DNA of 64,000 nucleotides from positions 65,846,001 to 65,910,000 of the forward strand of contig CM059432.1 in assembly GCA_030390025.1 (NCBI GenBank), written 5' to 3'. Below are positions 5,383 through 61,209 of this stretch, piece by piece; the first letter of the stretch is position 1, and every line of letters starts with the position of its first letter. The position numbers and the translations under genes are program-made. The stretch is from Squalus acanthias (lineage: Eukaryota). The notes below the pieces were generated by a model. The model saw only the letters and a program-made list of their open reading frames with translations, was not told the DNA's origin and ran no database searches.

Positions 5383-7343
5383 AGCAGAGAAAATTCGAGA
5401 AGGCACCTTTAATACCAAGGTCCGCCTGATTCAATTTTCAGACAATCGGGGTTCTCCTTCTTCTTAGGCAGTCCCTCGGAACCGAGGATGACTTGATTCC
5501 ACATTAAAAATGAGTTCGCAGGTGACTGATGAGTCCAATGCGGGACCTACAGTCTCTGTCACAGGTGGGGCAGACAGTGGTTGAAGGGGCGGGTGGGTGG
5601 GGTGCTTGGGTTGACGTGCGCTCCTTGCGCTGCCTGCACTTGGCTTCCGCATGCTCCCGGTGAAGAGACTCGAGGTGTTCGGCGCCTTCCCGGATGCTTC
5701 TCCTCCACTTTGTGCGGTCTTGAGCCAGGGATTCCCAGGTGTCAGTGGGGATGTTACACTTTTTCAAGGAGGCTTTGAGGGTGTCTTTGAAGCGTTTCCT
5801 CTGCCCACCTGGGGCTCTCTTGTCGTGCCGGAGCTCCGAGTAGAGCGCTTGTTTTGGGAGACTCGTATCAGGCATGCGGACAATGTGACGCGTCCATCAG
5901 AGCTGATCGAGCGTGGTAAAAGCTTCGATGCTGGGGATGTTGGCCTGAGCAAGAACACTGACGTTGGTGCGCCTATCCTGCCAATGGATTTGCAGGATCT
6001 TGCGGAGGCAGCGTTGGTGGTACCTCTCCAGTGCTTTGAGGTGCCTGCTGTACATGGTCCATGTCTCTGAGGCATACAGCAGGGCGGGTATCACTGCTGC
6101 TCTGTAGACCATGAGCTTAGTGCCGGGTTTGAGGTCCTGATCTTCAAACACTCTCTTCCTCAGGTGACCAAAGGCTACACTGGCACACTGAAGGCGGTGT
6201 TGGACTTCGTCATCGACGTCTGCCCTTGTGGACAGTAGGCTCCAGAAGTATGGAAAGTGGTCCACGTTGAACTAAAGCCTTGTCGTGGATTTTGATAATC
6301 GGGGGGCAGTACTGTGTGGCGGGGGCAGGTTGGTAGAGGACCTTTGTCTTACGGATGTTTAGTGTAAGGCCCATGCGCTCGTACGCTTCGGTGAAGGTGT
6401 TGACGATGGTTTGGAGTTCGACCTCCGAGTGAGCGCAGACACAAGTGTCATCTGCATACTGTAATTCGATGACAGAGGATGGGACGACCTTGGATCTGGA
6501 CTGGAGGCGACGGAGGTTGAACAGTTTCCCGTTTGTTCTGTAAATTAGCTTCACTCCAGTGGGGAGCTTACTGAGGGTGAGATGGAGCGTTGCAGCAAGG
6601 AAGATCGAGAAGAGCGTTGGTGCGATGACTCAGCCTTGCTTGACCCCGGTTCGTACGTGAATTGGGTCTGTGGTGGATCCGTTGGTCAGGATCACGGCTT
6701 GCATGTCGCCGTGAAGCAGGTGGAGGATGGTGACAAACTTATGAGGGCAGCCGAATTTGAGGAGGACACTCCATAATCCCTCACGGTTGACAGTGTCGAA
6801 GGCCTTTGTGAGATCAAAGAAGGCCATGTACAGTGGTTGGTGCTGTTCCCTGCATTTTTCTTGTAATTGACGTGCGGTGAAGATCATGCAAATCGGGGTT
6901 CTACATGGATCGCAGGACCCCAATTGCAATTTTCATGTACAAATGGCGGGGGCGCGTGTGCCATTAACACTAGGCCTAGTTGGACCAGGCATTGAGTGGC
7001 CTAATCAGCCGTCCTTAAGGGGACCAGTGAAGGCTCGTCAGGAAAAGGGAAGTTTTTTAAAGTTTCATGCTTCTCCTGGCCCCACGAAAATCCTCCTGCC
7101 TGTTATAGACTATACTTGCTCTCCCCAGGATTGGCTCCCCTTCACCCCCAACAGGCCTGAGCTCCTGGCTGGTTCCGTGTCAAAACTGGCGAGTTGTAGT
7201 GAAACATTCGTTTGACATCCGCAGCTCGCTGGCATGAATGCAAATGAAAATGGTTCAGGCCTTTCGTCTGTGGCTTTGGGTGGATGCCGTGGATGCCCTG
7301 CCCATTTCCCACCTGTTTTGGACACAGGTTGAAATTTGCCCCC
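5383..7343. mobile_element. Degenerate Harbinger-type MITE hosting the RTE insertion
   Basis: Right end GAAATTTGCCCCC resembles other Harbinger TIRs here. Left end uncertain. Confidence 0.4.
5456..6890 (-). mobile_element. RTE-clade (BovB-like) LINE, 5'-truncated and frameshifted
   Basis: RT motifs FFDLTKAFDTV, GVKQG, QYADD. C-terminal CPTC...HLRTH zinc finger. (AAG)n tail. 12-bp TSD AATCGGGGTTCT (5444-5455, 6891-6902). Confidence 0.92.
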
Positions 7344-9271: not shown

Positions 9272-11970
9272 GGGCTCGATTTTGCCAGGCCCGAGGAGGC
9301 GGGATTGGAGGCGTGTGAGGTGGTAAAATCGCAAAAAATGGCGGGTGGGCCCGATCCCGTCTCCAGCCCGTCTCCGAGCAATTTTCCTAAATGCGAGTTT
9401 TCTGACCCCATTTCTATCCCGCCTCCAAGAGGCGGGATAGGCCCTTAAGGCCCTTAACAACCAGTTAAGTGCCTCTATAACCCCATTTTGAGAGGCCTTT
9501 CTGATTTTACCACTTTTCCCCCATCCTGCATGCCTCCTCTGGAACATGCCAGTGAATCCTGGCGGCCTCACAAGTGGATTGCTTACTAACAGCTGCAGCT
9601 CGACCATTAAAAAGGAGTTTTCAGCAATCATCATTTGCAGGTGGCAGAACTTTGTTGTCTCAGATCTGGGGGAACGTTTAGCAGGCATACCCATTGTTGT
9701 GGAAGTTTGGAGCCTGACACCCATCTCCAGTGTGACTTCCTGGGAAACCCCTCTCGCCACCTTGACTGAGCGCTTCCTCAACTGAGGCATATACCAGAAG
9801 CATGGGAACCATTTATTTCCTTTCCTCCTGGACATCAGATTCGGACGAAGACCAGCCGTGGCAGCAGCAGAACCATGAACAACAGCACCACCAACAGCAG
9901 CAGCAACAACAGGAGCTCCAAGCTGCTGCTTACCCACCTGAAGCTGCACAGGCCAGAACGCACCAGCGCGCGACCACATTGCTGCCCGGGATGCAAGGGA
10001 CACACTCATCTTGGCCAGATTTGCTTAGCCTGCACAATCAAACAATTTTGCCTCACACCTTCTTATCAGACCATTGACAATGGCCAAGAACCTGCGGATT
10101 CCTATCACTCTGACCACCATACTGACAATTGCAAGTCACCCTAAGCCCTCAATGTGGAAGTCCCATTAGAGAAATGACACATGCCACAACTGCAACAGTT
10201 TGCCATCAGAATTTTTTATGACAATAAGCAACTGATGGCTTTTCAAAGTTAAACACAACATTACACCCAAGTGACTACGGTAGCCAGCCTTACCATGGAG
10301 GTAGCCAGCCTTACCATGGAGGTAGCCATCCTTTCCAAGGAGGTTGCCATCCTTTCCGTGGTGATGCGTTCATGCGCCAACGCCTCCACAAAGGCTCTGC
10401 ACATGCTAACGATGGACTCCTCCATTCGCTCCACACTTGCAGCGACCCTGGAGACAAAACCTGCCAGAGACTCCTGCACCTGTTCCTGGAGTTCCAGCAC
10501 CGCTCTCCTTCTGGATGGACCCGGAGGCACAGGGTCGACATGCAGCGGAGCCGAGCTGGGAGAGTCCTGTGCCCTCCGATGAGGACTCTCCACTGCTGTC
10601 CCTGTCTCCACCATCTGCTGATGCTCACTTGTGAGCTGTGATACACCAGGTGACAACTCTACTCTATGTCCCAAAGGTCCCACCGAGGTGTGAGTGTCTG
10701 CACTGGTGCAAGGTGCACTTAATTCTGCTGACGGAGCGCCCTCAGAGGTTGCAGCTTCCTCTGAGGAGTCTGGAAGCTCAGGCTCTTCCTCCTGGACAGT
10801 GGGGACGGGAGCTCTCGATGGTCCTGTGGGGGAGTAAAGGAAAGAGTTAGAGATGTGAGGTAAAGGTTGCATGCACATTGAATTGTGCAGATGATCATAA
10901 GCCAATCTGTTAGAGCATCAGAATCATTATCAGTCACTCATGCAATGTCAATGAGAGAGATGCCAAACTATTCTGTCACCAGCTTGCTGTGATGCGCCCA
11001 CGTGTCCGTCCCCCACTTGGGAATCCTCCTCGATCCCGTCAATTTCCAGGGCCGCCTCCTCCGAGGTGGTGAGCTGGGCTACTGAGGGTGGCCCTCCTCC
11101 TGTCCTCGCTCTTTCCCTCTTATTGTGGGCTCTCTTTTCCTGCAATGAGGGACACAAGTGGAGTTTGAGTGAGAATGAAGGAGTGAGTGTAGAGAATCCA
11201 TAGCATAGATGCTTAGAAGGAGACAAAGAGCTCTGCCTGTGTGTTGTAAGTTGTTGTCATTGCGTCACAGTGATAGGGAGTGTGAGGGCTGCATGGTCGA
11301 ATAGTTAAGTGAATGTGACCATAGAGAGAGAGGGAATGGGTAAGGGTGCAGGGATGTCAGTGTCAAGTGGGATGTGGAGGAAGAGGTTGGCAAAGCAGAG
11401 TGCTGGTGAGGAGAGGCGATGGGGATGAGATTGAGGGTGATGAGAAAGTCATGCTCACTTTTCCTGTGCAGAGAAGGTCTCTTTCTGCACTGCAGCCAGG
11501 TTCTGCGGCACATAGAGATGGCATTGACCTCCTGGGCCACTTGCAGCCACACAGCTTTAGTCTGTTGTGGTGGTTTTTTTCTCCCTGAGGAAGGGAAGAG
11601 CACCTCCTTATTAAATCTTGCTCCCTGCATCAGAGCTTGGAGGGAGGGCTCATCAAAGCAAGGTGCACACTTTTGCTTGCTGGTGGACATGGTCGGTAAA
11701 TGAAGTCCTTCATACAATGTACAAAGCGTTTCCAGTCTCCAGAAGAAGCAAGGCTGCTTGCAGGCCTTAAATCCAGCAGCACTGATGACGTCATCGGAGG
11801 TGACTTTCAGGATGGAAAGACTAATTGGGCCAGGGGTTCCCACACACTGGAAATCAAGTGCCCAATTAGGGGAAAATCGCACTTTTTTCCCACTTCACAT
11901 CGGAGTCGGGGTCCTGACACGAAAACCACCTGACACACCCCAGCCCGACCCCAATGGCAAACTCGAGACC
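9272..11970. mobile_element. Non-autonomous Myb-retaining Harbinger
   Basis: TIR GGGCTCGATTTTGCCA / TGGCAAACTCGAGACC. TSD TAA. Three-exon Myb gene on minus strand. Transposase reduced to a remnant at 9802-10028. Confidence 0.9.
10261..11690 (-). pseudogene. Harbinger Myb/SANT-like DNA-binding protein gene, 3 exons (11690-11459, 11139-10980, 10823-10261), frameshift at end of exon 1
   Basis: Motif APCFDEPSLQAL...W..VAQEVN...RTWLQCRK. Exon 2 EKRAHNKRERARTGGG. GT-AG sites. Exon 1 is 232 nt (not 3n). C-terminal 21-bp heptad repeats (ERMATSL/VRLATSM). Confidence 0.8.
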
Positions 11971-12089
11971 TAAGAATTTAATCGAAGCACATTAACCAAT
12001 TTCTTAAAAATGGTGCACCAAGGAATTTCTACCCTAAGTCTATTATCATAATTTTTTTTAAAGAAAATCTTTTGTCACAATTGGGTCAC

Positions 12090-15760: not shown

Positions 15761-17252
15761 TTCCTGCATTGTCTAATTTATTTTCAAATATATTAACTGG
15801 CTCACACAGGAATGCAAGTTAATAAATGCTCCTTTTATTTTTCCCATAGAAACACATGCCTCACATTCTGTTAATATATTTGGTTTGGCATGACATCAGT
15901 TCTTTTAGTTATGAGTACTCTGGCCTACAACTCAGTGTCATGTTGTGAACTGGCTTGTAGATAGTCAGCTAGCAGCATTTTCTGACTGTCACTTGACAGG
16001 CCAGGCAGCTGCCGAACATTTCCATGCTAAGCACATGATCCATTCCCTTTCTATAGTTACCTGAGTCTATTTGAATAAAGTTTGGCAAGTTGTCTTCATG
16101 GCAGGGATTGAATTAAAATGGCATGTGATCTGGAGCCGTGACAACACATTGGCACCAGTGATAATGTGCTGACTCAAGCTGGCCACTGGCCTGCCTGATT
16201 CTGCCAGTCCAGATGCATTGAGCCAGATAGATCACATCCAGCCTTGCAGGAAACATAATGCTACCATTGTACTGAGATCAATGCTGCAATCATAGTTTAG
16301 CCCTCAGAATACACATAGATGAAGTGCTAGAGCTGCTATAAATGTACTGAATGCTCTCAGTTGGGCAATTCCACATAGAACTACCATAATGTTTTGCATT
16401 TAATCCACAATATTGTACACAGTGAACTTGAAATCAGGTGCATGTTATATCTGAAAATTGATATTAAAAATTAACTTCAAAGTGATTTTTTATGTGATGT
16501 GCATTATTTAATGTTGGAAGATGGGCTTCAAATCCAGGTACACATATTATGTGAAATGTTTTACAGAACGCTTTACAGCCAATGAAGTATTTTTTTTTGA
16601 AGTGTAGTCACTGTGGGCTGTAGGAAGCGTGGCACCCAATATGCGCACAGCAAGCTCCCACAAACATCACTGTGATAATGACCAAATAATGTGTTTTAGT
16701 GATGTTGATTGAGGGCTAAATATTGGCCAGGACACCAGGGATAACTCCCCTGCTCCTCTTCAAAATAGTGCCATGGGATCTTTTATGTCCATCTGAGAGA
16801 GCAGACAGGGCAGGGCCTCGGTTTAACGTATCATCTGAAAGACAGCACCTTGTAAGGTTTCCAAAATTTACAGATCCCCAAAACCTAAGGAAAAAGGACT
16901 TTGGAACTACCCCAGAGTGATAAAAATGCATTTGGGCCTAACCTAAGGAATTTAAGACCAAAAACCAAGTTTTGGCATTTTTTAAAACATGTCTGGGCCT
17001 GTAAAGGGAGAAAAGGCTGTGAAGGAAGGTGGGTTCGACCTCTGTAAAAGCAGTTCTGTTTATTGCAGTTAATTGCACTGTCTGGGGAACCGGGATGACC
17101 CTACTCAAGCCCCAGCAGGCATTAACATTTTGACAATAGACCCTGGGAGAAGACAGTCCCACCCAAAATAACAGGCCCCATCAAACCAATTACAGGTCCC
17201 ATCAAAACCATGCATAATACAAATCACTCAGACCAATTTCTATAGAAAGATT

Positions 17253-18095
17253 GGGCTGGATTTTCATTGACCCGTGGAGTCGGGTTTGGAGGCGTGTGGG
17301 GGGTTAAAGTTGCAGATTCGGGGGTCCCGACCCCATCCCACCCCCAACCCGCCTCCATGCCAGTTTCGCTGGCGGCGGGTACCCGACCTGTGCTGGGACC
17401 CGCCTCACCGAGGCGGGAAGGGATTAGTGACAATTAACTGCCTGTTAACAGGTAGTTAACAGGCAGTTTTTTGCCTAATCCCTATTTTAATGGCTGAAAT
17501 GTGGGCTTCCCGACAGGTGCCAACCATGTCAAGTTATCGGGGCGGACCGTGGGTCTGCAGGGGTTGGAGGGGTCGATATGTCCGGTGGGCAGGTGAGTGA
17601 TGGGTGCATGTGTGCAGAGGTAAGTGTGTAAGGTAAGTGCAAAGTGTGGGAAAAAGTTTTACTTACCTTAACTTCCTCCTGCAGGTGTCAGCCCTTCAGT
17701 TCTCGGGAGTCAGAAATCTCACCGGCACAGAAAGCAGAAAGGCCGTGGTGTTGTCAAAAGTTTCAGCCTCTGTTTTCTGTGCTGGAATTATTTCTAACTC
17801 AGCCTGAGAGGAAGGACTCAAGTTAGAAGACAAATTGTCAGTGTTTGACAGCTTCACAGAGCTGTCAAACGCTGATATTTCATCTGTCAAAAGCTCTTGA
17901 CAGATGAAATGTCAATCTGTGACGTCACCTGTTGCCGGGTGGCCCTTAATTGTCCTGCTGAGCTCACTGGGCGGGCTCAACAAGGTCAATCAAGGGAAAA
18001 TACAGTGGGTTGGCCACATCTCGATGGAGAGGGGTCTACAACCTAAAAATTGGGATTCCCGACTCCATCACGTCCCCAGTATCAAAATCCAGCCC
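17253..18095. mobile_element. Harbinger MITE with splice-site cluster and hairpins
   Basis: TIR GGGCTGGATTTT/AAAATCCAGCCC. TSD ATT. End homologous to 635-1384, interior homologous to 43335-45775. Confidence 0.9.
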
Positions 18096-18668
18096 ATTGA
18101 GTCCAGCCTAGAAAACCAAACACAAAACCAATCAACTGTAATCAACCAAGGAGATTGACAGGACGCAAGCCATCCCAAAAACCAGTTAACACGCTAGTAA
18201 AGTCATTACTGTTAACGAGGCCTCCAAAAATCTTACAATTTGATTTTGGTTTTGATAAGGAAGCTTCAATTAGTATAATTGAAAAGGCTGTTTTCTCAAG
18301 AAGCCAGTTCTCCCGCAAAACAGTTCAAGTTCAACAGAAGCCAGTTCTGCAGTTTCGAGTTCAATTGAAAGCCTGTTTTCAGCAGAATCCAATGCTGGAG
18401 TTACAGATTTCAGGAGAAGCAAGTTGGGCAGTTAAAGAAGACAGTTCAGTAAGAAGGGAGTTCTCCAGTTCTCCAGCACAACAGTTAAAGTTCGGCAAGA
18501 AGGCAATTCCACAGCTCTGAAGAGGACAGTTCAACAAAGAAGGCCAACAGCTCCAGAAGCAGGCCGACACGCAAGAAGAAACCAGAGCAACAGTTCCAGT
18601 GACCATCAGACACCTCGTGGCAACAAGGGCCTTACGAAACCTTTTACTCAAAAGACTCTAAACCCTAA

Positions 18669-19564
18669 GGGGTAAAAATTCAGTTGGTTGCGCCTCCCGT
18701 TAGCGCCTTAAGAGGGCGCTAATGGGGCGCAAAGCCGCTAACGCCCGGGCGCAGCGATGTTTGCGCCGCTCGGGAACTTAACTAGAGATTGTGCGGCGGC
18801 GCTAAAACTTACCGCTGCGACCACCTGCGCGCGCAGATTATGACGTCATTCCATGGTGCAACGCCCTTGTGGCGCCCCGGAGCGGAAATTGAGTGGCGCC
18901 CCCTGCCTTACCGCCTGGCGCATCCAACGACCAGAAGACTGGAACGCTATCAATCGCTGTGGGGCTGGGGGGGGGGGCGCTATTTAAAGGGGGCCTCTTC
19001 CTGTCTTTTATTGTTGGTGGCATTTTTGAACTACGCATTCTGAGAGAGAGAGGGAGAGACTTCTGGAGAGATTCAACGTTGTGTGAAGGAGTTTTGGGTA
19101 CTGAGCAGCACTTTGCAGGTTCATTTTGATTTGCCATTCCTTGTATCGATTTAGCAGAGACTGTGGGAGCTGCACTCTGAGCTCTTTGCCTGGTACTCTC
19201 CATTGTTCTTTCCAGCACATTTGATGTGCAAGTCTCTCCAGGCCGAGATTCAAGGCTGCAATGAACAGGATGTGGATGGAAAGCAAGATTAACCATGCCC
19301 TTTAAGAACTGGCCCGTGCCATTGTGTGTGTGTTCCATTGCTGACTGACATTACATGAGCTTCGCCAGCGCTCTGAGTTAGCGCCTCACTCCTTGGCCTT
19401 TGCGCCTTAAGACAGGTGTGCAGCGCCTGCTTTAGCGCTCCACTCACCTCCCGGGGCGGTAAAAGAGAAGTTTCCAGTCAGTGCCGATAATTAGCGCCAG
19501 GCGCTAATATTTGCGTCCAGACGATATTTGCGCCCCAAATGGGGCGCGACCTAATTTCTACCCC
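18669..19564. mobile_element. Internal-deletion derivative of the autonomous Harbinger family at 38060-42296
   Basis: TIR GGGGTAAAAATT/AATTTCTACCCC. TSD TAA. Left arm matches 38060-~38510, right arm matches ~41935-42296. Confidence 0.92.
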
Positions 19565-20096
19565 TAAGTCTCAACTGTCAAGGATTCGTTCGGTGAGCAT
19601 TATCCCTGGTTCTCCAGAGCCCAACCTAGCTAGAGAAGTGGGATTGGGAGGGGTGAAGTATTCTTTTAATGTTATTTCCATCGCTTGTACCGAAGTGTTC
19701 CCCACCTTTAGAGTGTTAAGAGTGTTTGTGTTGTGTTTTACTTTCTTAAATAAAGATCAAAGTTCTTGCATCAAACTCAGTTGTCTGCTGCACCTTTTTA
19801 TCACAACCCCCAAATAAGTCCAAGGTCTAGAACCAAGGGAGTGGGAGCGATTCGAACCGCTCAGAAGTCAGAGGTGAAGCTAACACAAACCACCACCCTG
19901 ACAGTGCAGGGCTCACTCAGTACTGCACTGGAGTGTCAGCCTAGATTTTTGTGCTCAAAGTCTCTGGAGTGGGACTTGAACCCACAATCTCCTGACTCAG
20001 AGGCGCGGGTGCTACCCACTGAGCCACAGCTGACACGAAGCAATTTACAATCATAAAAAAAGTTATGCATCTGGAATATTTCACTTTATACAATAT

Positions 20097-22988: not shown

Positions 22989-25900
22989 GGCCTAGAAATT
23001 CTGCTCATAGTGCCCGGTTTTTCGGTGCCATGGGTGCCGTTTTGGGTCAAAAATGGCATCCGCGCCGCAGGTGCACACTTCTGGTGTGGACCACGGTGAA
23101 CGCCATTTTGGTGAGGTCATTTGTGTCGGCGCAGGTAGTGTGCGCCAATAGTATGCAGTGCACGCAGATCATAACGTTAATCAGCGTGCAATGCTGATTT
23201 GACGTCAGCGCTGCTATTTTCGACCTCAGTGCTGGAGCTCACACCCTCTCTTAACCTCCCACAGCTGAACATTCGTTCAGCAGCAGGAAGGACCTCCCAC
23301 CAGCCTTATTTAAAGGGACCAGCACGTGCTTTCAGGTTAGTTGCTGGTTGATTTCTACTGGCATTTGGTGAGTTTGTCGAAGCGTTTGTTGGTTTTGGTG
23401 TCTTATTTGAAGTTGCTGAAGTGTCCAGGGAGTGATGTGGCAAGTTATTTCAAGGCTTCTTCTCAGACCAGTTGCTCCCAGACATGGGTGCAGCAGTTTG
23501 TATCCCCCTTGGTCTGCAGAATGATAGGGAGAATGAGCAGAGGTGGCACAGAGGAGGACAAGCTCCTTAAAGAGGGCGGAGGAAGCCGGAGAGACGGGCT
23601 CTCAGCTGGAGACCATATCCACCCAGGGTCTTCAGGGAGCAATTCACCTACCTCAGTCTCAGTGAGGAACAGTGTATGCGACGTGCCCGCTTCACGAAGG
23701 AGATGCTCACTGAAATCTGCCACCTGTTACAGGCAGATCCGCAGCCTGAGAGCAGGGCGAGGACGACATTGTCAGTGGTTCTGAAGGTGAGCGTTGCCAT
23801 GAATTTTTATGCATTGGGCTCCTTCCAGGCAGAGTTCACCATTAACCGTTGCATAAGGGAGGTCATTGAGGCTCTGTATGCAAGGAGGGCTGAATACATT
23901 TCATTCTCTCTTGCCAAAGAGAAGCAGGCGGAGCGAGCATGCGGCTTCGCCAGGATAGCAGGCTTCCCCTTGGTGCAGGGTGCCATTGACTGCACACACG
24001 TCACTTTGCGAACGCTGCATGTGAGCTCGGAAACGCACCGCAACTCGAAGGGATTCCAGTCCCTCAGTGTCCAGCTGGTGTGCGACCACACTCAGCGCAT
24101 CATGCAGCTCAACGCTCAGTATCCTGGCAGCAGCCACGATGCCTTCATTCTGCAGCAGTCCGCTTGTACCATCCACATTTGATGCGCCACGACAAACCAG
24201 AAGGTGGCTACTAGGCAACAAGGGGTATCCGCTGGGCAACCGGCTCATGACTCCAGTGCGCAACTCAAACACGTGTGGCCAGCATGCATATAACAAAAGC
24301 CATGCTGTCACACGGAATGTGTTCGAGCAGACCATTGGGGCCCTTAAACAATGCTTCTGCTGCCTGGACCACTCTGGAGGAGCCCTGCAGTACTCACCCG
24401 CGTGCGTCTCAAGATTTGTTGTGGTCTGCTAAATGCTGCACAACCTCACCATCATGAGGGCACAGCCCTTGGCCACCAGGCATACGGCGACCAGCTGAGG
24501 AGGAGGAGGAGGAGGAGGAGGAAGGGAGGAGGCAACCGAGACAGCCCCTTTCTGGCCGGGTTGCCCGTTATCAACTGATCTGACTGTGGTATCAGTGAAC
24601 ACAAGCTCAAGTCCCCATTCACCCACAGTCCCACTCCCTACCATCCCTCTGTTACTGACCATCACAGCATCCTCTTGGCCACAATGCTACAATAAAAGCC
24701 ACCACAAAACAAATATTCCAAACCAACTTTATACATCAATCCATCCAATATTACATAACAAAGTCAACTAATCGCCCTTGTGCATTCCCTTAATGCCTGT
24801 CTTCAGTGTGTCTTTGCCTGTCCTAGTGTTACCCCAGTGGCTGCAGCATGGCTGATAGAAGGCTGCTGGCTTTCAGTGGGGGAGACTGCAGATGGCCTTG
24901 CAGGATGACCTCGAGCAGCTCTGGGCCTAGAAGGCCCGGCTTTAGACTACACCACCTCTGCATGGGTGGCGGCAGTCTGGGCTGGCTGGCCGACAGGCAA
25001 CACAAGGGCACTGGTGGAGTGGCAGTGGTGGAAGGACGAATGCTGTCATCCTGAGAGAGGACAGCAGATTCATGCTCCACGGTGCCACTGCCACTCCCCC
25101 AGGGCGGCACCTCAGCGATCCTAGTAATCTGTTGGAGGACAGATTGCTGGACCGCTGTGACACCCTGCAAGCCCCTTTCAACACTGGTAACAACAGTCAT
25201 GATGGCAGCAGTCTGAGCTTACATGGCAACAAGCTGAGCTTGCATGAGTTAAGTCTGAGCTTCCACTGTAGCACTCAGATATTGTGTGGCTTCTGCTTGT
25301 GCTGCAATGGAAGCTGAGACATCGGCCATCAGACGCTGCATGATGGTTGCGTCCACAAGTACACTAATGGATCTGTCCATCACCTCCACGCTGGAAAGGA
25401 TGGGCTCCAAGCTCTGCCCAAAACCCAGTGCAAGGTTGGTGCTGGACTCCTCCATGCTCCTTGACATTGCATTCAGGCAATCTGGCAGGCCTGCCAATGC
25501 ACCAAACATTTTGTTGTGCCTACCCATCAGCTTTGTTCAGTAAACCGCCCTATCGAGGTCCTCAAATGAGTCCTGTGCAGCAGAACTTGAGTGCGCACTC
25601 ACCCTCTGGGGAGCTGACACATGTGCTATCCTTTCCCCCTGCCCTGGCTGTAGCCCAGTTGTGCCCGGTGACTCACCACATGCAGATCCCGCCTCTATGC
25701 TACCCTCTAAAGTACGCGTATTGCCAGTATCTGAGCTGGTGGCTGCGAGTGTGAGATCGAGTGACGGTGCTTCTTCTTCATTAGTGTTTTCTTCCTCTTC
25801 TACCACTGCCTGCCCAGGTTGGAGTTCTTGGGTGTCTGAAGGCAAAAGGCCCAAGGGTAGGGTTGTGGTGAGGGGAGGGGCAGGGTTAAGCAAGAGGTGC

Positions 25901-26310
25901 ACGCTTACACCACGTGCAGCTTGTAAGTCAGAAGAGATTGTGGGATGAGGGGGAAGTGGGATGTGAGAAGGAGGATTAGGTATGATCATACCGTCATCTT
26001 CAATGGTTTCAACCCCACTGCTGGCCACAGGCTCAGTCACAGCCATTCCAATAATGCCAAGCACCGTCTCCTCCATTGGGGTTAGGATGTACAGGCACGC
26101 CTGCCCCTCTCCAGTTAGCTGCTGCTGCCTTCGGTTCTGTGCCTCCTTCTCCTGCAAGAGAGAGGGAAGTGGGCCATTGAGTGTGGTGCAATGTGTTTGG
26201 TTGATGTGGCTGTCATGGATGAATTGCTGGCAGTCTGTGCAAGCTGTGAGATGTGGGTGTGAGACTTGCAGCAGTGGTAAATGTGTGAGATTGAGATGGA
26301 CTAGATAGAG
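22989..26310 (+). mobile_element. Degenerate Harbinger: transposase pseudogene (~23484-24590, +) and Myb exons 2-3 (minus); right end missing
   Basis: GAIDCTH, YPGSSHDAFIL, WLLGNKGY and NVFEQTIG motifs across frameshifts. Myb exon 2 EKEAQNRRQQQLTGEG. Left end GGCCTAGAAATT. Confidence 0.88.
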
Positions 26311-30850: not shown

Positions 30851-32360
30851 GGCCCGGAATTTGCGGTTGTAATGATGGTGAAACTGTCAGCACACGATGT
30901 CATTACTGTGTAAAACTGACAGCAACTTCTGGCGTCCGCACAGGCGCAGTTAAACGCGGAAATGCAGAAGTTGCTGTAAGTGATACCCTGCTCCTCCACA
31001 GGGTGTGCTGTTGCAGTCTTCGCAGATGCAATCAACACAGAATCAGTGAATTGATGTGAGTTTTTACACACTATTCTCACTGTAAAAAACAATGGCCCTG
31101 AAATTCGCCTCTCCGGCTTGCCACGGGGGTAAGGATCGCGCGCGCACTTACCTACCACGCCTGCCGTTGACCTCTGGGCCCACGGGAACTTCAGCTCCTG
31201 GGCCTGCTCCAAGTGCCGGCGCGCAGTGCTTGCGTGTCCCAGGGGCGTAGTTAGTGCGATGCGTGCCCTGGGATCACGTGGGCCATGGAGAGCCAATGGC
31301 AGCAGACCATCTTTCATTCATAGATTTGACAGGAAGACCTGTCAAATCTATGAATTGAAATCGGCCCCAAAAGAACAGCTAAACTTAAAATATATTTTTT
31401 TTAAACCATCACATTTACAAAATAAATTAACTACTTTAAACAAAAATGTAAGTTTTTGAAAAAATTAAAATACTTTTTAAGAGTGCTAAAAATAAACTTA
31501 CCTTTCTTTAAAGTATCGAAAAAAGATAAACCTGTTGAAATTTTTTTTAAATTATAATTAATTAACCACTTACCTTGTTGAAAACGGGTCCTGCGCCTCC
31601 TTTTTAAAAGCGCAGGTTCTTCAATACTTACCCTCCCGTAGAAACCTGAAAAAAACCCTAAGTTTGCGGCGTGCGCGCAGCCTCTATCGTGCACGCGGTT
31701 CACCTATGAACCGCCCCCTTCACCAGACCGGAAGTTCCGGTTTCCCGCGCATGCGCAGTGCATGCAGGAAACCGGCACTTCAGGACGCCTTACGGGTGAG
31801 TACACAGTGCGTACTCACCCGGCAAGGGCCGAATTTTTGGCCCAATGAAAATGTTAAGCCTTGTTGAATGAGGTGTAACTGAGTTTTTAATGGCGTACTA
31901 AGTGATGATTACTGCTGAACAACTACGCTGGCCCTGAAAAACTATTTTTTATAAGTGTGGAGTCTCATTCCCTCAGAAGAACAATTCAAAATTTCATGAT
32001 TTTTAAAATAATAAAAATTATTATTTTTTTAATGTTTGGTTATGATATTTCAGTTTCTACCTTAATCCCATGTGTATGTCCCAATCTTTATTTTGCTCTC
32101 TGTACAATGATTAAAATGTGAATTATAATCCCTGCTTTTTACTTCCTGCTTTGCTGTCTGTGCGAATTCTTCAATTTGATTGGCTGATCAGCCTGCTTGC
32201 TACCTGCACTGTTGCTGGATGCCACAGAAGGCACCAAATTCAAAGTCACATTGGAATAGAGGAAATCCACGCTCAAGAGCATGCTAAATCTTTGTGGGCA
32301 GCTTTTTTCGAGGTCAGCGGTGAGCGCCGTCCCTTCGCCGCTGACCGCAAAATCCGGGCC
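30851..32360. mobile_element. Harbinger MITE with a nested MITE
   Basis: 17-bp TIR GGCCCGGAATTTGCGGT / ACCGCAAAATCCGGGCC (1 mismatch). TSD AAT. Confidence 0.88.
31094..31843. mobile_element. Nested Harbinger MITE with several hairpins
   Basis: GGCCCTGAAATTCG / CGAATTTTTGGCCC. TSD AAT (31091-31093, 31844-31846). Confidence 0.85.
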
Positions 32361-33070: not shown

Positions 33071-33419
33071 CTCTGACTTCCATCAACAGTCTAGAGTGCG
33101 TGCTATCAGGGCTCAGTGACTTATCCATTTTGAATGCTGCCCTGCCCTGCTTGCATCAACTGTAAGACTTCCATGTGCAATTGCTGGCCAGTCGGTGGGC
33201 AAATGGCCCAACTCTGCACCAGCGGTTGCTTTTTTGTGGCCCCCGCAGATGGCCTGTTAACGCGTACGTTGACAAGCCACAAGTTCTGGATTTTGCGCAT
33301 GAGAGTATGCTGTCATACACACTGCAATTTCAGGGCCATTATGTCTGTAACAAAAATGTAATCTTCTATCTGTGCTGAATATTTTTAACTTACATTTTCT
33401 AGTGCTAGAATTAGCATGT

Positions 33420-36400
33420 AAGGGGTTGAAGGAGAATCACACAGGGCATTTCTCAAAGGAGAACACACCAATATAGGAGAGAGCAGGCTCCAAGGTTTTC
33501 GGATACTGCTCTGGAGGTCTTGGTGGAGGAAGTCAAAGGGAGGAGAGATGTCCTGTATCCGCAGGGGTTAGGAGGACCTCCAGACACATGCTCAGAAGGC
33601 AGTGGGAGCAGATAGCTGTGGAGATCAATGCGAGGAGTCAAGATCCGAGGACCTGGATGCAGTGCCACAAGAAGTTCAATAACCTCACACGAGTGGTCAA
33701 GGTAAGTGAATGCATCTTCAAATACCAGATCCTACCAACTGCACCAGTAGACTCAGCCACCGCTCAAATCACCACACCCCATCACTCACCCACCAACAAT
33801 CTCTATCAATCAGGCCTCATACCTAACATTCATATGCTTCACCTCACCCTCACACACTTAGCATTGCTACAAGCCTCACACCCACATCTCACAGCTTGCA
33901 CACACTGCCAGCTATTCAACCATGACAGTCACATCAGCCAAACAGATTGTACCACACTCACTGACACACTTCCCTCTCACTTGCAGGACAAGGTGGTGCA
34001 CAACCATAGGCAGCAAGAGCTAACCGGAGGAGGACAAGCACGCCTGCATGTCCTAACCCACATGGAGGAGATGATGCTGGCCATTATTGGAATGGCCATT
34101 GCTGAGGCTGTGGCCAGCGGCAGGGCTGTAACCTTTGAAGATGATGGTGTCCTCATACCTAATTCTCCTTCTCACATCCCACTTCTCCCTCATCCCACAC
34201 TCTCTTCTGATTTACAAGCTGCAGATAGTACTGCACCTCTTACTTTCCCCCACTCCCCGCACCACAACCTTACCCTTGTGCCTTTTTCCTTTCAGATACC
34301 CAAGAGGTGCAACCTGGCCAGGCAGTGGAGGAAAACCAAGAAGAGAGTGATGATGAAGGCGCAGTACCGTCACTTGATTTCACACTTGCTGCCATCAGCT
34401 CAGTTACTAATACTGCGCATATCTTAGAGAATAGGTTACAGGCGGGATCTGAACATGGTGAGACACTGGGCATGAGTGGTCAGGAAGCAAGGATAGTGCA
34501 GGTGCCAGCTCGCTGGAGGGCGAGGTCGCAGACGGTTTTGGCTGCAGAGGACGCAGATGAGGACTTCAATGGGGTAGCCTACAGAAGTACGCTAATGGGT
34601 ATGCACAGAAAAATGCTTGGTGCATTGGCAGGCCTGCCAGAAAGCCTGCATTCAATGACAAGGAGCATGGAGGAGTCCAGCACCAACTTGGCACAGGGCT
34701 TTGCGCAGATCTTGGAGCCCATCCTTTGAAGTATGGAAGTGGTGGCCAACTCTGTTCATGCACTTGTGGACCCAACCATGATGCAGTGTCTGATGGACGA
34801 TGTCACAGCTTCCATTGCAGCACAAGCAGCAACCATCCAACATCTGAGTGCTACAGTGGAAGCTTAGACTTCTGTCATGCAAGGTCAGCTTGCTGCCATG
34901 CAAGCTCAGACTCCTGCGATCATAGCTGCAGTTACCAGTGTTGAAAGGAGCTTGCAGGGTGTCACAGCAGTCCAGCAATCTGTCCTCCAACAGTTTACTA
35001 GTATTATTGAGGTGCCACTGGGGGAGTGGCAGTGGCTCCACAGAGCACGAACCTGCTGTCCTCTCTCAGGAAGATAGCATTCGTCCTCCCACCCCTGCCA
35101 CTCCGCCAGTGCCTGTGCTGTTGCTAGTCAGCTGGCCAGCCCACACTGTTGCCGCCCATGCCGAGATGGTGCAGCCTGCAGCTGGGCCATCTAGGCCCAG
35201 AGCTGCTTGAGGTCGCCTTCCAAGGCCATCTGCAGTCTCCTCCATTGAAAGTCAGCAGCCTTCCACCAGCCTTGCTGCAGCAACTGGGGTAGCACTGCAT
35301 AGGAGCACTAGGACAGGCAAAGGCACCTAGAAGACAGCCACTAAGGGAATGCACAAGGGTGATTGGTTTAAGTTTACATGCAATATGGCATGATTTCATT
35401 TATAAATTTGGTTTGGAATGTTTATTTTGTGGTGGCTTTTATTTTTGCATTGTGGCCAAGCGAACCCTGTGATGCTCAATGACAGAGGAAAGTAAGGTGT
35501 GGGACTGTTAGTGAATGGGGAATTGGGGTTGCAGTTACTGGTATCATACTCGGATGAGTTCTTCATGGACATCCCGGCTGAAAGGGGCTGTCTAGGTTGC
35601 CTCCTCTCTTCCTCTTCCTCCTCCTCCTCCTCATGCTCCTGCTCCTCAGCTGCTTACCGTATAGCTGGTGGCAAGGGCTGCTGCATAACCTCATGATGGC
35701 GAGGTTGTGTAGCATGCAACAGGTCACCACGAATCTTGACACCCGCTCTGCTGAGTACAGTAGGGCTCCTCTAGAGCAGTCCATGGCTTTCATTGTATGC
35801 ATGCTGCGCCATGTGCATGGGTTGCACACCGGAGTCATGAGCCATGTTGTCAGCAGAAAGCCCTTGTCGCCCAGTAGCCATCCTTTGGATTGCCATGGTG
35901 GCTGAAATGCAGCTGGCACAGCAGACTGCCACAGAATGAAGGCATCATGCCTCCTGTCAGGCATTGACCTGCATGATGTGCTGTCTATGTTCACACACCA
36001 GCTGGATGTTGAAGGAGTGGCATAGGGCAGAGTTGACATGCGGCTCCCGCAAAGCAATGTGCGTGCAGTCAATGGCACCCTGCACCATGGGGAAGCCTGC
36101 AATCCTTGTGAAGCCACATGCTCGCTCCGCCTGCTGCTCTCTGGCATGAGAGACTGAAATGTAGTCAACTTTCTTTGAATAGAGAGCCTCAGTGACCTCC
36201 CTTACGCAACAGTAGATGGCAAACTGCGAGATGTTGCAAATATCTCCAGCTCAAGCCTGGAAGGAGCCAGATGCATAAATGTTTGTAGCCACGGTCACCT
36301 TCACAGCCACTGGCAATGCGGTCCTTGCCCTGCTCTGAGCTTGCAGTTGTGGCAGCAGTAGTTGGCAGATTTCAGTGAGGACATCCTTACTGAAGTGGAG

Positions 36401-37057
36401 ACATCTCACACATTGTTCCTCACTGAGGTTCAGGTAGGAACACCCTGGGCGGATATGGCCTCCTGCTTGAGACCTCTTCTCCCCCTCCTCCTCCTCCCTC
36501 TTCCAGCAGCTTGTCCTGCTCTGCATGGCCTCTGTTCATTCTCAAGAATGCCTACTTGTGCACCCATGTCCGGCGGCAAGTGATTTGTACAGAAGCCTTG
36601 AAATCAGCAAAAAGTCATGTGCTGTGGACTTTTGAAACTTGAAACAACTATAGAAAGCACCAAACACTTGCAGAATCGCATCAATAGCCAGAAAGATCAA
36701 CCAGCAACTAACCTGTAAGTAGTTGATGATCCCTTTAAATAGAGCTGGTTGGAGGGGGCGGGGGGGAGTTCTTCCTTTGGCTGAATGCGTGTTCAGCTGT
36801 AGGAGCTTAAGAGAGAGTGTTTGCTGGAGCGTTGAGCTCCAAAATAGCACCGCTGGTGTCAAATCAACGTTGCACACTGATTGACGTCATGATCTGCCTG
36901 CTCTGTAACCTTCCGGTGGACGTTAGCTGCACACGCGCTAATGCCCTTACCAATATAGCGTCCGGCGCGATTCACCCCACAAGTGTGCAAATGCCATTTT
37001 GGTATCCAAACGGCACCCGTAGTGTCCAAACAATGGGCGCTACCGATCCAATTTCGT
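33420..37057 (-). mobile_element. Degenerate Harbinger, inverted relative to 22989-26310: Myb pseudogene on + (exon 1 ends 33701; exons 2 and 3 start 33987 and 34296), transposase pseudogene on minus (~36567-35540)
   Basis: RTWMQCHKKFNNLTRVVK|GTAAGT. DKVVHNHRQQELTGGG. WLLGDKGF. Collinear with 22989-26310. Confidence 0.88.
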
Positions 37058-38368
37058 GCTGTATGACTCTTAACTCTTATCTGAAATGGCCTAACAAATC
37101 ATTCAGTTGTATCAAACCACTAAAAAGAATAACTGCAGCAGTCCAAGAAGAAGGCCCTCCACCTGAAGGGATAATTACTAGTCCTAGCCCTTTTCGGGCT
37201 ACCCCGGATCAGGCGTATTCCCCAGACATTCACCTTCAACTAAAGTTAGAGATAGCCGAATCCTATAAGACACTTAATTGGGTCTAAAGGTCCAGACTAT
37301 CTCTCCCTAAAGGAAAGGAATGACCTGAAGATGTTACCGTCCTCCAGATAGCACTTTTAATAAGTTTAACTAGACTGTAACCTTCCGGATATTATGAGGG
37401 TCCGGAAAACTCCCCCAGAATTCTGAAACTCCTCACCAAAGAGTGTACAGGGATTGAGTTCACGAGTTTGATACAGAAGTACTATGTGAGACAATTCTAA
37501 AAATATATAGATTTATTAAAGAACCGACATGTAGTTAACAGTTGGTGATTCAGTCGCAACATTAACAGTTCAAAATACAAATAGCTTACAATTCTTATTC
37601 TCAGAGATCCTTATTCTCAAATCTTAACTTCGTTACATTTTTACATTTCTACTTATTCTTAATCCAGGATATCCACCAAAATCAAATAACTTTGATTACC
37701 CGAGACTCAAAGAGTTGTAGGCTTTCAGAGCCTGTCTCTGAAGCTGAGAAACGCTTGCCCCTTCCAGCGAATTCTGTCTTCCTATTTGAAAGTTCTATAT
37801 TTTAACCCTTTTTGCAGTGGTATATCCTTTGAAGTTTTCTGCCGATGTAAGCTAATTATCTCCAGTTATATTTCTGTTGACTTCTTTCTATTCTTACTGT
37901 CAGTTCAGCTGTTAGCTTGCTGACTTGTGTCTCTACCTTTAGGTGTTCAGAACTTATCATAAAAAACGGTTATAACAGCTGTATCTATTTGATGCCATTC
38001 TTATGAAGGTCTTCTATTCAATTCTTAAATCACCTCAGCTGGTTGTAAGCAGACTTCATGGGGGAAAATTCAGTTGGTTGCGCCTCCCGTTAGCGCCTTA
38101 AGAGGGCGCTAATGGGGCGCAAAGCAGCTAGCGCCCGGGCGCAGCGATGTTTGCGCCGCTCGCGAACTTAACTAGACATTTTGCGGCGGCGCTAAACTTT
38201 ATCGCCGCGATCTCCTGCGCGCGCAGATTGTGACGTCATATGAGAGTGCAACGCCCTTGTGGCGCCCCGGAGCAGAATTTCAGTGGCGCCCCCATCCTTA
38301 CCGCCTGGCGCATCCAACGACCGGAAGAGTGGAACGCTAACAATCGCTGTGGGGCTGGGGGGGGGCGC

Positions 38369-38376
38369 TATTTAAA
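38369..38376 (+). promoter_or_regulatory. TATA-like box of the transposase promoter (TATTTAAA), with CRE TGACGTCA at 38231-38238
   Basis: TATTTAAAGGG lies upstream of the transposase position in several copies (~18981, ~23307, ~60126). Confidence 0.5.
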
Positions 38377-38584
38377 GGGGGCCTCTTCCTGTCTTTCTCT
38401 GTGGTTGACATTTTTGCACCACTCGTTCTGAGAGAGAGAGAGAGATTCGGAGAGAGAGAAAGAGAGACTTCTGCATTGAGTCAACGCTGTGTGAGGTAGT
38501 TTTGGCTACTCATCCTAACTTCGCTGGTACTTTGGTTTCTGGCCTTCATAACTTTGCTTGCTAAGAGATACGGGGGCTGCACTG

Positions 38585-39600
38585 ATGGGGGGCGTCGTCC
38601 TGCGCCAGCTGAATCGGAGGAGACAGAGATGCAGAGAGAGAGTGGCAATGATGGCCAGATGGAGGAGGGCCAACAGGCGTCTGTACAGGAGAGCTTACCC
38701 TACCAGGGTATATCGTGAACAGCTATCCTACATTCATATGTCTGATGAGCAGTGTCTGCGAAGGCTGCGCTTCAGCAAGGAGGTGGTCACTGAGCTCTGC
38801 CACCTGCTGCAGCCAGATCTGCAGCCTCAACTGAGGTCCAGGACATCTCTGTCGGTGGCAGTGAAGGTCACAGTGGCTCTGAACTTTTATGCTACTGGCT
38901 CATTTCAATCTGCTGTTGGGGACATCGCCAATATCTCCCAGTTTGCGGAGCATTGCTGCATCAGGAAGGTCACAAATGCCCTCTTTAAAAGGAGACGAGA
39001 GTTCATCTCTTTCCCCATGACCCCAGACAAGCAGCAAGAATGCGCTCTGGGCTTTGCGAGGATAGCGGGCTTCCCCATGGTGCAGGGCGCCATTGACTGC
39101 ACGCATGTGGCTTTGCGTGCTCCGCATGAGAATGCCGAGGATTTCCGGAACAGAAAGGGGTTCCATTCCTTGAATGTTCAGTTGGTCTGTGACCACAGAC
39201 AGCTGATACTCGCTGTCAATGCCCATTATCCTGGCAGCTGCCACGATGCTTTCATCCTGTGCCAGACTACTGTGGCAGAACTTTTCGAGGCACCGCATCA
39301 GCCAGTTGGTTGGCTTCTCGGGGACAAGGGGTATCCACTGAGCACCCGGCTGATGACACCGCTCCGTACGCCCAACACCCCTGCTGAGCTGCGGTACAAC
39401 GAGAGCCATCAAGCTACCAGGAACATCGTGGAGCACACAATCGGCGTGCTCAAGCAACGGTTCCGCTGTCTCGACCATTCTGGAAGAGCCCTGCAGTACT
39501 CGCCTGAGCGAGTTTCCAACATCGTAGTTGTGTGCTGCATGCTGCATAACATGGCAATCCTCAGGACCCAGCCAATGCCACCAGGCCTTGGAGCACCACC

Positions 39601-39631
<31 letters not shown>

Positions 39632-39730
39632 GAGGAGGATGATCAGCAGCAGCACCAAGGCGTGAGGGCGGCCCACAATGGTGAAACTGCAAGGGCTGTC
39701 CGTCAGCGGCTGATAGCAAGCCGCTTCTAG
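38585..39730 (+). CDS. Harbinger DDE transposase (HARBI1-like nuclease family), 381 aa
   Basis: Uninterrupted ORF from ATG 38585. Motifs GAIDCTH, NRKGFHSLNVQ, YPGSCHDAFIL, WLLGDKGY, RNIVEHTIGVLKQRF, CCMLHN. Acidic tail. Confidence 0.95.
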
Positions 39731-40041
39731 GCCCCTGCTGTGGAAATGGCTTCTGCCATTGAGAACAGCATGAATGAACCCAACATGCAACCCCTAAGCC
39801 GGCCAAGGCACCAATGATTCCAAACACCAAACATGTATATTTTGAGTACCAAAACTTATTTATTTTACAAACTCTGTGTGTGTCATTTCTTCATGACAAA
39901 CTCATACAAATAAACACAAAAAAACAGTCATTACCATAACTGGTTCTCACAACCTGGAGATCATGTGCAAAACACTCAACAAAAGTTTGACCACGAACCT
40001 CGGCCTTTAATAAAAAAATGACCAGCATTTTGTCACACCTC

Positions 40042-43334: not shown

Positions 43335-45775
43335 GGGGGCAATTTGTGAATGGAGGCGAGTTGGAGGTGGGACTGCTGCTTGTCGGATTTCAGTCCCGCC
43401 TCCATCGAGTTGTGGCCAACCCATGCTATTTTCCCTTGATTGACCTTGTTAAGCCCGCCCAGCGGGCTTAGCAGGCCAATTAAGGGAAAGCCGATTGCAG
43501 AGCATGTCAATGTATGACGTGTCATCTGTCAAAAATTTTTGACAGATGAATTGTCATCATTTGACAGCTCTGTGAAGCTGTCAAACAGTGACAATCTCTG
43601 CAGTTTGATGAGGTCTTGCATACAAGACCTCATCAACCTTCTTTCTTTTACAAAATTGAGATGTTTGTTGCATCTGAGAATGCAACAGACATCTCTCATC
43701 TGCAACACAGAGGTGCGAGACTCCCCATATAGAAACCGACTGAAGCCTGCAGGAAGAAACAAAGGTAAGTACACTTTTAAAAACACTTAGGACTTACTTC
43801 AGATACTCACCTCTACACTCTTGCACCCATCACTTACCTTCACACCACACTTTTGCACCCCCCCGACCCCCGCAGACCCACTACTCACCTCGCTGAGCTG
43901 GCGGGTTTTGGAGCCGTCGTGATGCCCGCACTTGTGAGGGCAAAAACGGGATAATCCTATTTTTTGCCTGTTAACTCCTTCTCTTCTTAGGCAGTCCCTC
44001 GGAACCGAGGATGACTTGCTTCCACATTAAAAATGAGTTCTCAGGTGACTGATGAGTCCAATGCGGGACCTACAGTCTCTGTCACAGGTGGGCCAGACGG
44101 TGGTTGAAGGGGCGGGTGGGTGGGGTGCTTGGGTTGATGTGTGCTCCTTGCGCTGCTTGCACTTGGCTTCTGCTTGCTCCCGGTGAAGAGGCTCGAGGTG
44201 TTCGGCGCCGTCCCGGATGCTTCTTCTCCACTTTGTCTTGGGCAGGGATTCCCAGGTGTCAGTGGGGATGTTGCACTTTTTCAAGGAGGCTTTGAGGGTG
44301 TCCTTGAAGCATTTCCTCTGCCCACCTGGGGCTCTCTTGCCGTGTCGGAGCTCCAAGTAGAGCGCTTATTTTGGGAGTCTCGTATCGGGCATGTGGATGA
44401 TGTGACCCGTCCATCGGAGCTGATCGAGCGTGGTCAAAGCTTCGATGCTGGGGATGTTGGCCTGAGTGAGAACACTGACGTTGATGCACCTATCCTGCCA
44501 ATGGATTTGCAGAATCTTGCGGAGGCAGCGTTGGTGGTACCTCTCCAGTGCTTTGAGGTGCCTGCTGTACATGGTCCATGTCTCTGAGGCATACAGGAGG
44601 GCGGGTATCACTGCTGCTCTGTAGACCATGAGCTTAGTGCCATGGTTTGAGGTCCTGGTCTTCAAACACTCTCTTCCTCAGGTGACCGAAGGCTGTACTG
44701 GCACACTGAAGGCAGTGTTGGACTTCGTCATCGACGTCTGCCCTGGTTGACAGTAGGCTCCCAAGGTATGGAAAGTGTTCCACGTTGTCCAAGGCCTTGT
44801 CGTGGATTTTGATAATCGGGGGGCAGTACTGTGTGGCGGGGGCAGGTTGGTAGAGGACCTTTGTCTTACGGATGTTTAGTTTTAGGCCTGTGCTCTCGTA
44901 CGCTTCGGTGAAGGTGTTGACGATAGTTTGGAGTTCGACCTCCGAGTGAGCGCAGACTGATCTGTGTGGCTCCTGGGTTGGCAGCTCCCTAGGGAGCTCC
45001 TTTGCCATCCTTGGCCATCCATTGCCATCCTTTGCTCTCTCTCCCCCAGTCTCCTATCTTCTGCTGTATAAGTTCCCCTGGCTCTAACAGTGGGTGCATT
45101 TTATTCCTAACTGCAAGTTGAAGCTGCAAGTTTAAAGTTACCTGAGCCCACTGCCCATCCCCTGACCATGCCTGTTCTTTGTTCTCATCAGTGAGCACTG
45201 GCTCTTCACTTAAACTTAGCTCCCAAATTCCCAGACCTCTCTGCTGTCAAAACTATGCTTCTCCACTGGACTAGTGATCTAGTGACTAGTGGATCGCGAG
45301 TGGAGCTCGGGGCCAGGGATCACGAGAATATCAGTGCTAATTTGATCCTGTGAGAGACAACATCATCCATGTCCGAGGCCGGGACCCAGGAGCGAGGACA
45401 AGCCCAGCAGAGAGGTCAAGGCCCAGGAGTGGCGCAGCGTGGACCAGCAGCGGGGTCAGGGCCCAGGGAAGGTGCAGCACGGGCCAACAGCGAGGTCGGG
45501 AGGACCACAATGCATCCTACAAAATCCAGGCAGAGAGGACCTGCGGGAAGGAGGGAGGAGGACAGTAGCAGTATTTTTGTGTGTGTGTGCTAGGCCGTTC
45601 TAGCAGAGCCTGGTCTCCAATCGCCTGTTAACTACCTGCTAACTGCAACCCGCCTCCTGGGAAGATGGCATGGAGGCGGATTGCGGGCGGGTTTGCCATC
45701 CGCCCCCAAATTCTGTCATTTTCCCGACAGTCCCGCCTCAATATCCGCCTCCTCGGGGCTGAGAAAATTGCCCCC
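43335..45775. mobile_element. Harbinger MITE (relative of 17253-18095, inverted) split by an RTE-derived insertion
   Basis: GGGGGCAATTT / AAATTGCCCCC. Flanks ATT/ATA. Confidence 0.82.
43977..45622 (-). mobile_element. RTE 3' part (43977-~44957) fused to ~665 bp non-coding sequence within one TSD
   Basis: Highly similar to 5456-6440. 11-bp direct repeat GCCTGTTAACT at 43966-43976 and 45623-45633. Confidence 0.8.
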
Positions 45776-49737: not shown

Positions 49738-49942
49738 AGCACCTTTGAGTTCCACCAGGACCTCTCGGCTCCAGACCTCATTACCTTGGTCAAGACATGG
49801 ACAATAGACCTGAATTCCAGAGCTGTGTTGAGAGTGACTGCCCTAGACATCAAGGCAGCATTCGACTGGCTTTGAAGTCATATTTGCATAAAGAAAGATG
49901 GTTGTGATTGTTGGACATCAATCAACTTGGCCCCAGGACATC

Positions 49943-61030: not shown

Positions 61031-61209
61031 TAGGAATATAGGAACAGTTTTTTTTTTAAGCTTGAACAAGATTCATTTGAAATAAAAATTTAGTTGACAT
61101 GACACCTTTGCATTTCAATAACCGTACAGCTATGAATATGTAAAAATTGGATCAAAGTACATGGGACATAAAACCAGACAAACTATGATTTTTCTTCGTT
61201 AAAGTAACT

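Follow-up and report, generated by a model that had tools for sequence, protein, structure and literature searches.

The 843-bp stretch at 17253..18095 (plus strand), hereafter copy A, is a full-length non-autonomous Harbinger-type element (MITE), and the family it represents is an abundant, non-coding one of the PIF/Harbinger type. Within the 64-kb window, which is the whole stretch of DNA analysed here, it stands as an ordinary Harbinger MITE whose interior holds an unusual block of motifs: a 137-bp cassette of splice signals at 17549..17685 that can be read as an intron on either strand. The reading that we favor, although we hold it at somewhat less than even odds, is that this cassette represents the promoter-proximal 5′-leader intron of a parent's transposase gene, retained in the MITE.

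The ends of copy A are marked by a 3-bp target-site duplication, ATT (left 17250..17252, right 18096-18098), and by a left TIR at 17253..17266 (plus strand) that is perfect over 12 bp and matches the right TIR (18082-18095) at 13 of 14 positions. Contigs that skip the element exactly or almost exactly occur in all four of the runs analysed, with empty-site joints from 17250 to 18099 in runs X16 and X13 and from 17231/17232 to 18099 in X14, X16, and X1; these contigs confirm the ends of copy A and place it within another repeat, whose flanks lie at 17150-17250 and 18099-18173 and whose empty form is found in all four runs. At 85% likeness, about 55% of one DNA run yielded 10,440 family contigs, a number of contigs rather than of copies, whose loose ends at the TIRs are unrelated to each other; three presumed RNA runs yielded 518, 346, and 497. 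Some of the stretch is present in 20 of the 24 runs listed; seven coded organisms have shares of at least 0.34, runs from two were analysed, and five runs with shares of 0.34-0.36 are presumed, by guess, to be RNA, none being recorded as such. Two runs of organism H, with shares of 0.13 and 0.05, contribute nothing to the results. Copy A contains no ORF of 120 aa. Neither it nor its relative copy B nor the window elements U and V yielded any trace of a transposase (no match better than E = 0.15), and a 28-sequence Myb profile scores below 0 bits at best in copies A and B and in a further MITE, C. The 3-bp duplication, short TIRs, lack of coding capacity, dispersed abundance, and ends akin to those of gene-bearing Harbingers together support the PIF/Harbinger assignment, as the available text of two sources gives 3-bp duplications for this superfamily (PMC9179366, PMC4482050) and short TIRs that generally begin with A or G (PMC4482050). 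That this was a non-coding MITE family had been proposed from the letters alone, and it is borne out. The family motifs returned no matches in viral contigs, metagenome contigs, or prokaryote genomes, and a scan of metagenome contigs for the transposase confirmed no locus; a viral match (L001) to an 18-letter pattern was dismissed as chance, being an isolated match of 22 bp.

By alignment, copy B (45775-43335) is a diverged subfamily relative of copy A. Its main part (43335..43976, minus strand), comprising the cassette (43889-43747), the hairpin array, and the right TIR, has 70% identity to copy A over 493 columns, and its left end with TIR lies at 45623..45775 (minus strand), with flanks TAT/AAT that differ by one mismatch. 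Between the two lies a LINE-like insertion (43977..45622, minus strand), putatively RTE-type, bounded by an 11-bp duplication (45633-45623 / 43976-43966) and matching 5454-6440 of the window at 93%. The copies are 75-77% identical within 17549-17684, more than on either side of the cassette, where identity is 57% (left) and 49% (right). The spacer that follows it (17685..17834) is made of subfamily-specific hairpins and shows no homology between A and B (z = −1.2, a score attained by 474 of 500 shuffles); loose contig ends at 17836 in X1 and X16 show the B-type spacer. Conservation returns in an array of TGACAG hairpins at 17835..17915 (minus strand; 70/81 identical) and in a right subterminal block at 17943..18030 (minus strand; 76/86).

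The cassette has complete U2-type geometry (GT donor, branch-point-like word, pyrimidine tract, and AG) on both strands. A plus-strand intron-like unit of 92 nt (91 in B) runs from the first donor to a CAG|G acceptor (17593..17684), a minus-strand unit of 112 nt (111 in B) starts at AAG|GTAAGT and ends in a C-rich tract with CAG (17555..17666), and the two overlap within the one 137-bp block. In copy A, every motif named in the sequence-only reading is in its place: AG|GTRAGT donors at 17593, 17620, and 17633 (plus strand), an opposing AAG|GTAAGT donor at 17666-17661 (minus strand), and an acceptor ending at 17684. Copy B carries minus-strand GTRAGT hexamers at 43888-83, 43837-32, 43810-05, and 43797-92, a plus-strand opposing donor at 43765, and an acceptor ending at 43747. 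The mirrored layout reported for it stands as to position, but the 43792 site reads AA|GTAAGT and is without the exonic AG; likewise, the layout is shared by the two copies except for the donor at 43883, which has no counterpart in A, so that three donors face four. As regards the recruitment of U1 snRNP that had also been proposed, the donors agree with the 11-letter donor consensus at 7-9 positions. The inner donors at 17620 and 17633 would yield units of 65 and 52 nt, lengths at or below the usual vertebrate intron minimum. The word TACTTAC (17660..17666, plus strand), called branch-point-like by comparison with the branch-point consensus, has its A 19 nt ahead of the acceptor G, and the pyrimidine tract with its CAG occupies 17670..17684 (plus strand). 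The same letters serve as TACTTAC, as the opposing donor (its reverse complement), and as the 3′ arm of a hairpin in the cassette, and they fall in a run (17660-17669) that is identical in A and B.

The enrichment of these words is clear, while their preferential conservation is less so. The A block contains three GTRAGT against 0.37 expected (reached by 5 of 500 shuffles) and the B block four against 0.63 (1 of 500); across the 64-kb window GGTRAGT occurs 32 times against 13.7 expected, a count that none of 100 shuffles reaches. It had been claimed that the motifs persist while the intervening sequence differs, which is overstated. Compared across the two copies, donor columns match at 29/32 and the acceptor tract at 11/15, against 64/89 for the other columns; within 17549-17684, the donor excess over these other columns has a Fisher p of 0.023 for a motif chosen post hoc, and the hairpin array and right subterminal block reach roughly the level of the donor columns. 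The sequence units that precede two of the B donors are alike (z = 4.0; 0 of 300 shuffles), whereas the equivalent similarity in A is not significant (z = 1.3); the alignment suggests a tandem duplication of the donor unit in B.

Three features had gone unremarked in the sequence-only reading: the continuation of copy B past the LINE-like insertion to its TIR at 45775, the complete intron-like unit of the minus strand, and the complementarity of the acceptor tract to the donor repeats, with 17613-17625 as its partner. A hairpin masking the donors and the acceptor is predicted, with modelled pairing in copy A of 0.87 (donor 2), 1.0 (donor 3), 0.99 (branch point), and 0.85 (acceptor), against 0.67 overall; donor 1 is paired only in part (0.57 in A, 0.51 in B). 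Of the 28 pairs in this stem, copy B retains 23 (16 unchanged, 6 with a change on one side, and 1 with changes on both) and has lost 5. Against shuffled sequence the local fold is unexceptional (z = −1.6 in A, −0.9 in B).

The arms of the MITE, unlike its middle, can be traced to relatives in the window. The left arm of copy A (17267..17548, plus strand), with GC-rich hairpins and GGCGG repeats, is homologous to the left ends of MITE G (1384-635; z = 64) and of element V (9272-11971; z = 33.5), with 0 of 100 shuffles reaching either score. The right arm is homologous to the region upstream of a Myb-like gene in U and V (A-U z = 12.8, B-U z = 18.4, B-V z = 10.2). Its match to U, whose Myb domain lies at 51447-51223, spans the TGACAG hairpins and reaches the position of the Myb start codon, with which 17835-17860 of copy A aligns. 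This homology indicates that the hairpin array, which had been taken for a second exon, is instead the promoter and 5′ end of an oppositely facing Harbinger Myb gene, read backwards. U and V carry Myb domains of the PF13873 type, and the 28-sequence profile finds the domain in five window elements. In element Z, a transposase (PF13359; 38552-39730, plus strand) and a Myb gene (PF13873, minus strand) face each other; nearly all of the 120 best relatives listed for this transposase are shark or ray proteins named 'putative nuclease HARBI1', with 45-66% identity among its top matches, which marks the host as a cartilaginous fish. From the convergent arrangement of the two genes in Z, the plus strand of the MITE is inferred to be transposase-sense.

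It is this orientation, together with analogy to four leaders in the window, that argues for a retained transposase-leader intron. Four of the nine left ends examined, those of elements X, Y, W, and S (22990-26300, 33280-37075, 47594-49740, and 59844-61035), carry a TATA-like box followed after about 30-40 nt by AG|GTTAGT or AG|GTTAAT, in X and Y upstream of the transposase ATG, and the box with its donor likely marks a non-coding first exon. The Harbingers of this genome thus possess leader-type donors that agree with the donor cluster of the MITE in both strand and side. Copies A and B share the donor, the branch-point-like word at −19, the pyrimidine tract, CAG|G, and the 92/91-nt spacing, and the best, if weak, matches of the cassette to other left ends are on the plus strand (A-Z z = 4.9, A-U z = 4.4, B-Y z = 3.1). 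Under this reading, a parent transposon whose genes stood tail to tail, as in Z and X/Y, would have contributed its two ends to form the MITE, with the plus strand in transposase sense; the leader intron would have been carried along, mostly unspliced and masked by the predicted hairpin. The extra donors may have arisen through tandem duplication of a unit of about 27-32 bp, the opposing donor may be mainly the branch-point word read backwards, and the MITE would presumably be mobilised in trans by a Harbinger transposase and a Myb-like protein.

The suggestion that the block could be a relic 5′UTR intron had already been raised, and it emerges as the best supported, by orientation and by the four leader analogues rather than by direct alignment to a parent. 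No parent with the cassette is found in the window, where the nearest relatives, V, U, and MITE G, are without it, and the TATA box of the X/Y/W/S type is absent from A. The similarity of the cassette to transposase leaders (z 3-5) is not above its similarity to Myb intron 1 on the opposite strand (z 2.6-4.8), and both sets of scores are drawn from many pairs tested; a seeming resemblance of the acceptor in A to the leader of V ranked below the top matches of the leader comparison and was set aside. The excess conservation of donor columns also counts against a decaying relic, unless A and B had different parents. If the leader-intron reading is correct, this is a very abundant MITE preserving its parent's leader intron, of use for the annotation of shark repeats, and its cassette may introduce cryptic splice sites into the introns of its host.

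A second possibility, unlikely but live, is that the cassette has been kept by selection on the MITE itself, as a self-contained mini-intron that works in both directions and in which the donors of one strand serve as the branch-point-like words of the other. Copies inserted into host introns in either orientation would then neutralise their own splice sites, or would recruit U1 so that the site stays transcribed and accessible, and in either case would spread better. The GT...AG units of conserved length on both strands and the higher identity of the donor columns are consistent with such selection, as is the fact that the conserved block is bounded by two outward-facing acceptors, with identical runs at 17549-17558 and 17677-17685. 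What keeps this alternative alive is MITE C (31094-31846), a second Harbinger-type MITE, nested in another element that begins at about 30851, which is unrelated to A and B (only weak scores) and yet repeats their layout in the same order: a TGACAG hairpin, one GTAAGT, and three opposing donors. These three are strong minus-strand donors at 31501, 31573, and 31631, donor-containing hairpins lie near both ends, and GTRAGT occurs five times against 0.33 expected (0 of 500 shuffles). A and B, together with C and the element that encloses it, account for 14 of the 32 GGTRAGT sites in the window. Against this, the alignment is limited to two copies; a reversed donor naturally resembles a branch point, and part of the two-strand symmetry thus comes free; and CTGCAG stands at the same place in the left ends of V and G, so that the acceptor on the minus strand may have been inherited as a word of the promoter side. 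The stronger claim, that a two-way, hairpin-switchable mini-intron has arisen repeatedly among the Harbinger MITEs of sharks, selected as a host-tolerance device that makes intronic insertions splice-neutral or U1-protected, we regard as improbable. Were the cassette indeed under selection in the MITE, it could account, in a way open to testing, for the very high copy numbers of some MITEs, which the available text of PMC2836001 treats as an open question, and RNA-processing signals would be seen to shape a DNA transposon that needs no RNA stage. The 31846 end of MITE C also bears CpG-promoter-like words, presumably NRF1- and ETS-like.

It is also conceivable, if distinctly improbable, that the genuine signal belongs to the minus strand. 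The opposing donor would then be the splice donor of exon 1 in a parent Myb-like gene, and the donors of the plus strand would be its CA-rich intron 1 seen in reverse complement. Several features fit: the right arm tracks the Myb end of U as far as the start codon, Myb exon 1 of element Y ends in AAG|GTAAGT as does the MITE site, the 12 nt before the donor region can be read as C-R-R/K-K, as in a Myb helix, and the cassette has the weak same-strand similarity to introns of U and V noted above. The Myb profile nevertheless recovers five window elements and nothing in A, B, or C, and five real Myb introns show no enrichment on their reverse strand (0-2 GTRAGT against 0.6-1.1 expected), two results that weaken this reading. 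In addition, the distance from start to donor is about 170 nt, against about 235-240 nt in intact exons, and the spacer is without A-B homology.

Less probable again is that the words are features of the DNA, with no role in splicing: binding sites for a Myb-like (trihelix-type) protein, or by-products of duplication and inversion. The element strand is predicted to fold over its whole length into a hairpin array (ssDNA z = −14.4), the donors and acceptor form the arms of one inverted repeat, and palindromic internal repeats are known from a Xenopus Harbinger MITE, according to the available text of PMC12676858. Yet GGTRAG occurs only 0-2 times per end across the 18 element ends counted, the subterminal motifs that do repeat are different ones, such as GGCGG in the A/V/U clade and GGCGC in Z, and a binding site would not require the exonic AG, the branch-point distance, and CAG|G to be retained jointly.

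The RNA data bear on the original proposal, a non-coding RNA transcribed from the left arm and spliced to a hairpin-array second exon. None of the 15 joints listed, of 17 in total, has GT..AG or CT..AC ends or fits either intron, in a set sensitive enough to recover empty-site joints with sides of 21-40 nt. The cassette block is present unspliced in contigs of three presumed RNA runs, two of which have high-depth contigs that keep the intron interior, each with two differences: an X16 contig at 17589-17699 (record 30, depth 678) and an X14 contig at 17601-17699 (record 21, depth 1090). With at least 31 letters on each side, both cross the donor at 17633 and the minus-strand donor unspliced, and the X16 contig also crosses 17620; under the same rule neither bridges the donor at 17593 or the acceptor. 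The RNA status of the runs is a guess, contigs lose rare forms, and host pre-mRNA would look identical; contig depth, moreover, cannot rank the parts of the element and is no measure of expression. The contigs show that an unspliced form is present, with which rare splicing is compatible. Splicing out of the element into host exons would leave loose contig ends at 17667 or 17685; none of the 24 listed, of 471, lies there. The plus strand of the MITE has neither of the poly(A) signals AATAAA and ATTAAA, and no Rfam 15 family reached its gathering score (eight matches with E of 0.12-0.72, scoring 17-24 bits where 55-230 is required). Although both subfamilies have canonical plus-strand intron geometry, strong RNA structure is predicted downstream (z = −10.4), and family sequence is abundant in the three presumed RNA runs, the spliced RNA is highly improbable given these results, a 'second exon' whose first 150 nt are unrelated between A and B, and an array that belongs to the Myb end.

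Compared with known systems, copy A has the general features of the Tourist-like PIF/Harbinger MITEs mPing/Ping and Harbinger3N_DR, which are likewise short and non-coding, with short TIRs, a 3-bp duplication, high copy number, and ends in common with two-gene (transposase plus Myb-like) elements (PMC2836001, available text). mPing is, in that account, a perfect deletion derivative of Ping, whereas only the arms of the present MITE align to relatives and its middle matches no parent in the window; the same text mentions no internal splice cassette. Mass expansion of vertebrate non-autonomous Harbingers is likewise described for Harbinger-Snek, with its solo-ORF and short non-coding variants (PMC8437027), and for Harbinger-N12A_XT, which shares the palindromic internal repeats (PMC12676858); in the available parts of these two papers, clustered donors or a two-way intron are not described. 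Introner elements, as presented in part of PMC11282704, are also MITE-like DNA transposons with splice signals, but their splice sites are terminal or lie in the duplication, and the whole insert is removed. The sites of the MITE (17555-17684) lie 300-430 bp inside and would excise about a tenth of the element; being internal, they led us to set aside copy A as an introner. Internally symmetrical fungal (stw)introns, a loose analogue, resemble the cassette as repeated intron sequences with splice elements within an inverted repeat, but in the available text of PMC8469720 they are whole introns without target duplications, with a genuine intron on one strand only; the unit described here is internal to a TIR transposon and intron-like on both strands. 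Searches by title and abstract returned no literature on donor clusters in Harbinger MITEs, and none was found pairing a MITE or DNA transposon with U1 snRNP; Repbase and most subscription journals lay outside both searches.

The window is vertebrate DNA crowded with repeats; Harbinger-type elements, delimited by eye, make up about 26 of the 64 kb, or about 41% of the window. The available text of PMC9179366 reports no Harbinger in the elephant shark, and its authors call for checks in further cartilaginous fish. Element Z (38058-42300) has an open transposase frame of 392 aa and four identical 54-bp repeats within an intron of its Myb-like gene, and a MITE at 18668-19566 that matches both Z ends at 84-86% looks like a plain deletion derivative. 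Z and MITE G (635-1384), members of different Harbinger families, sit at almost identical points in a single host repeat, with flanks that align at 1386-2252 with 38056-37187 (90%) and at 560-630 with 42370-42299.
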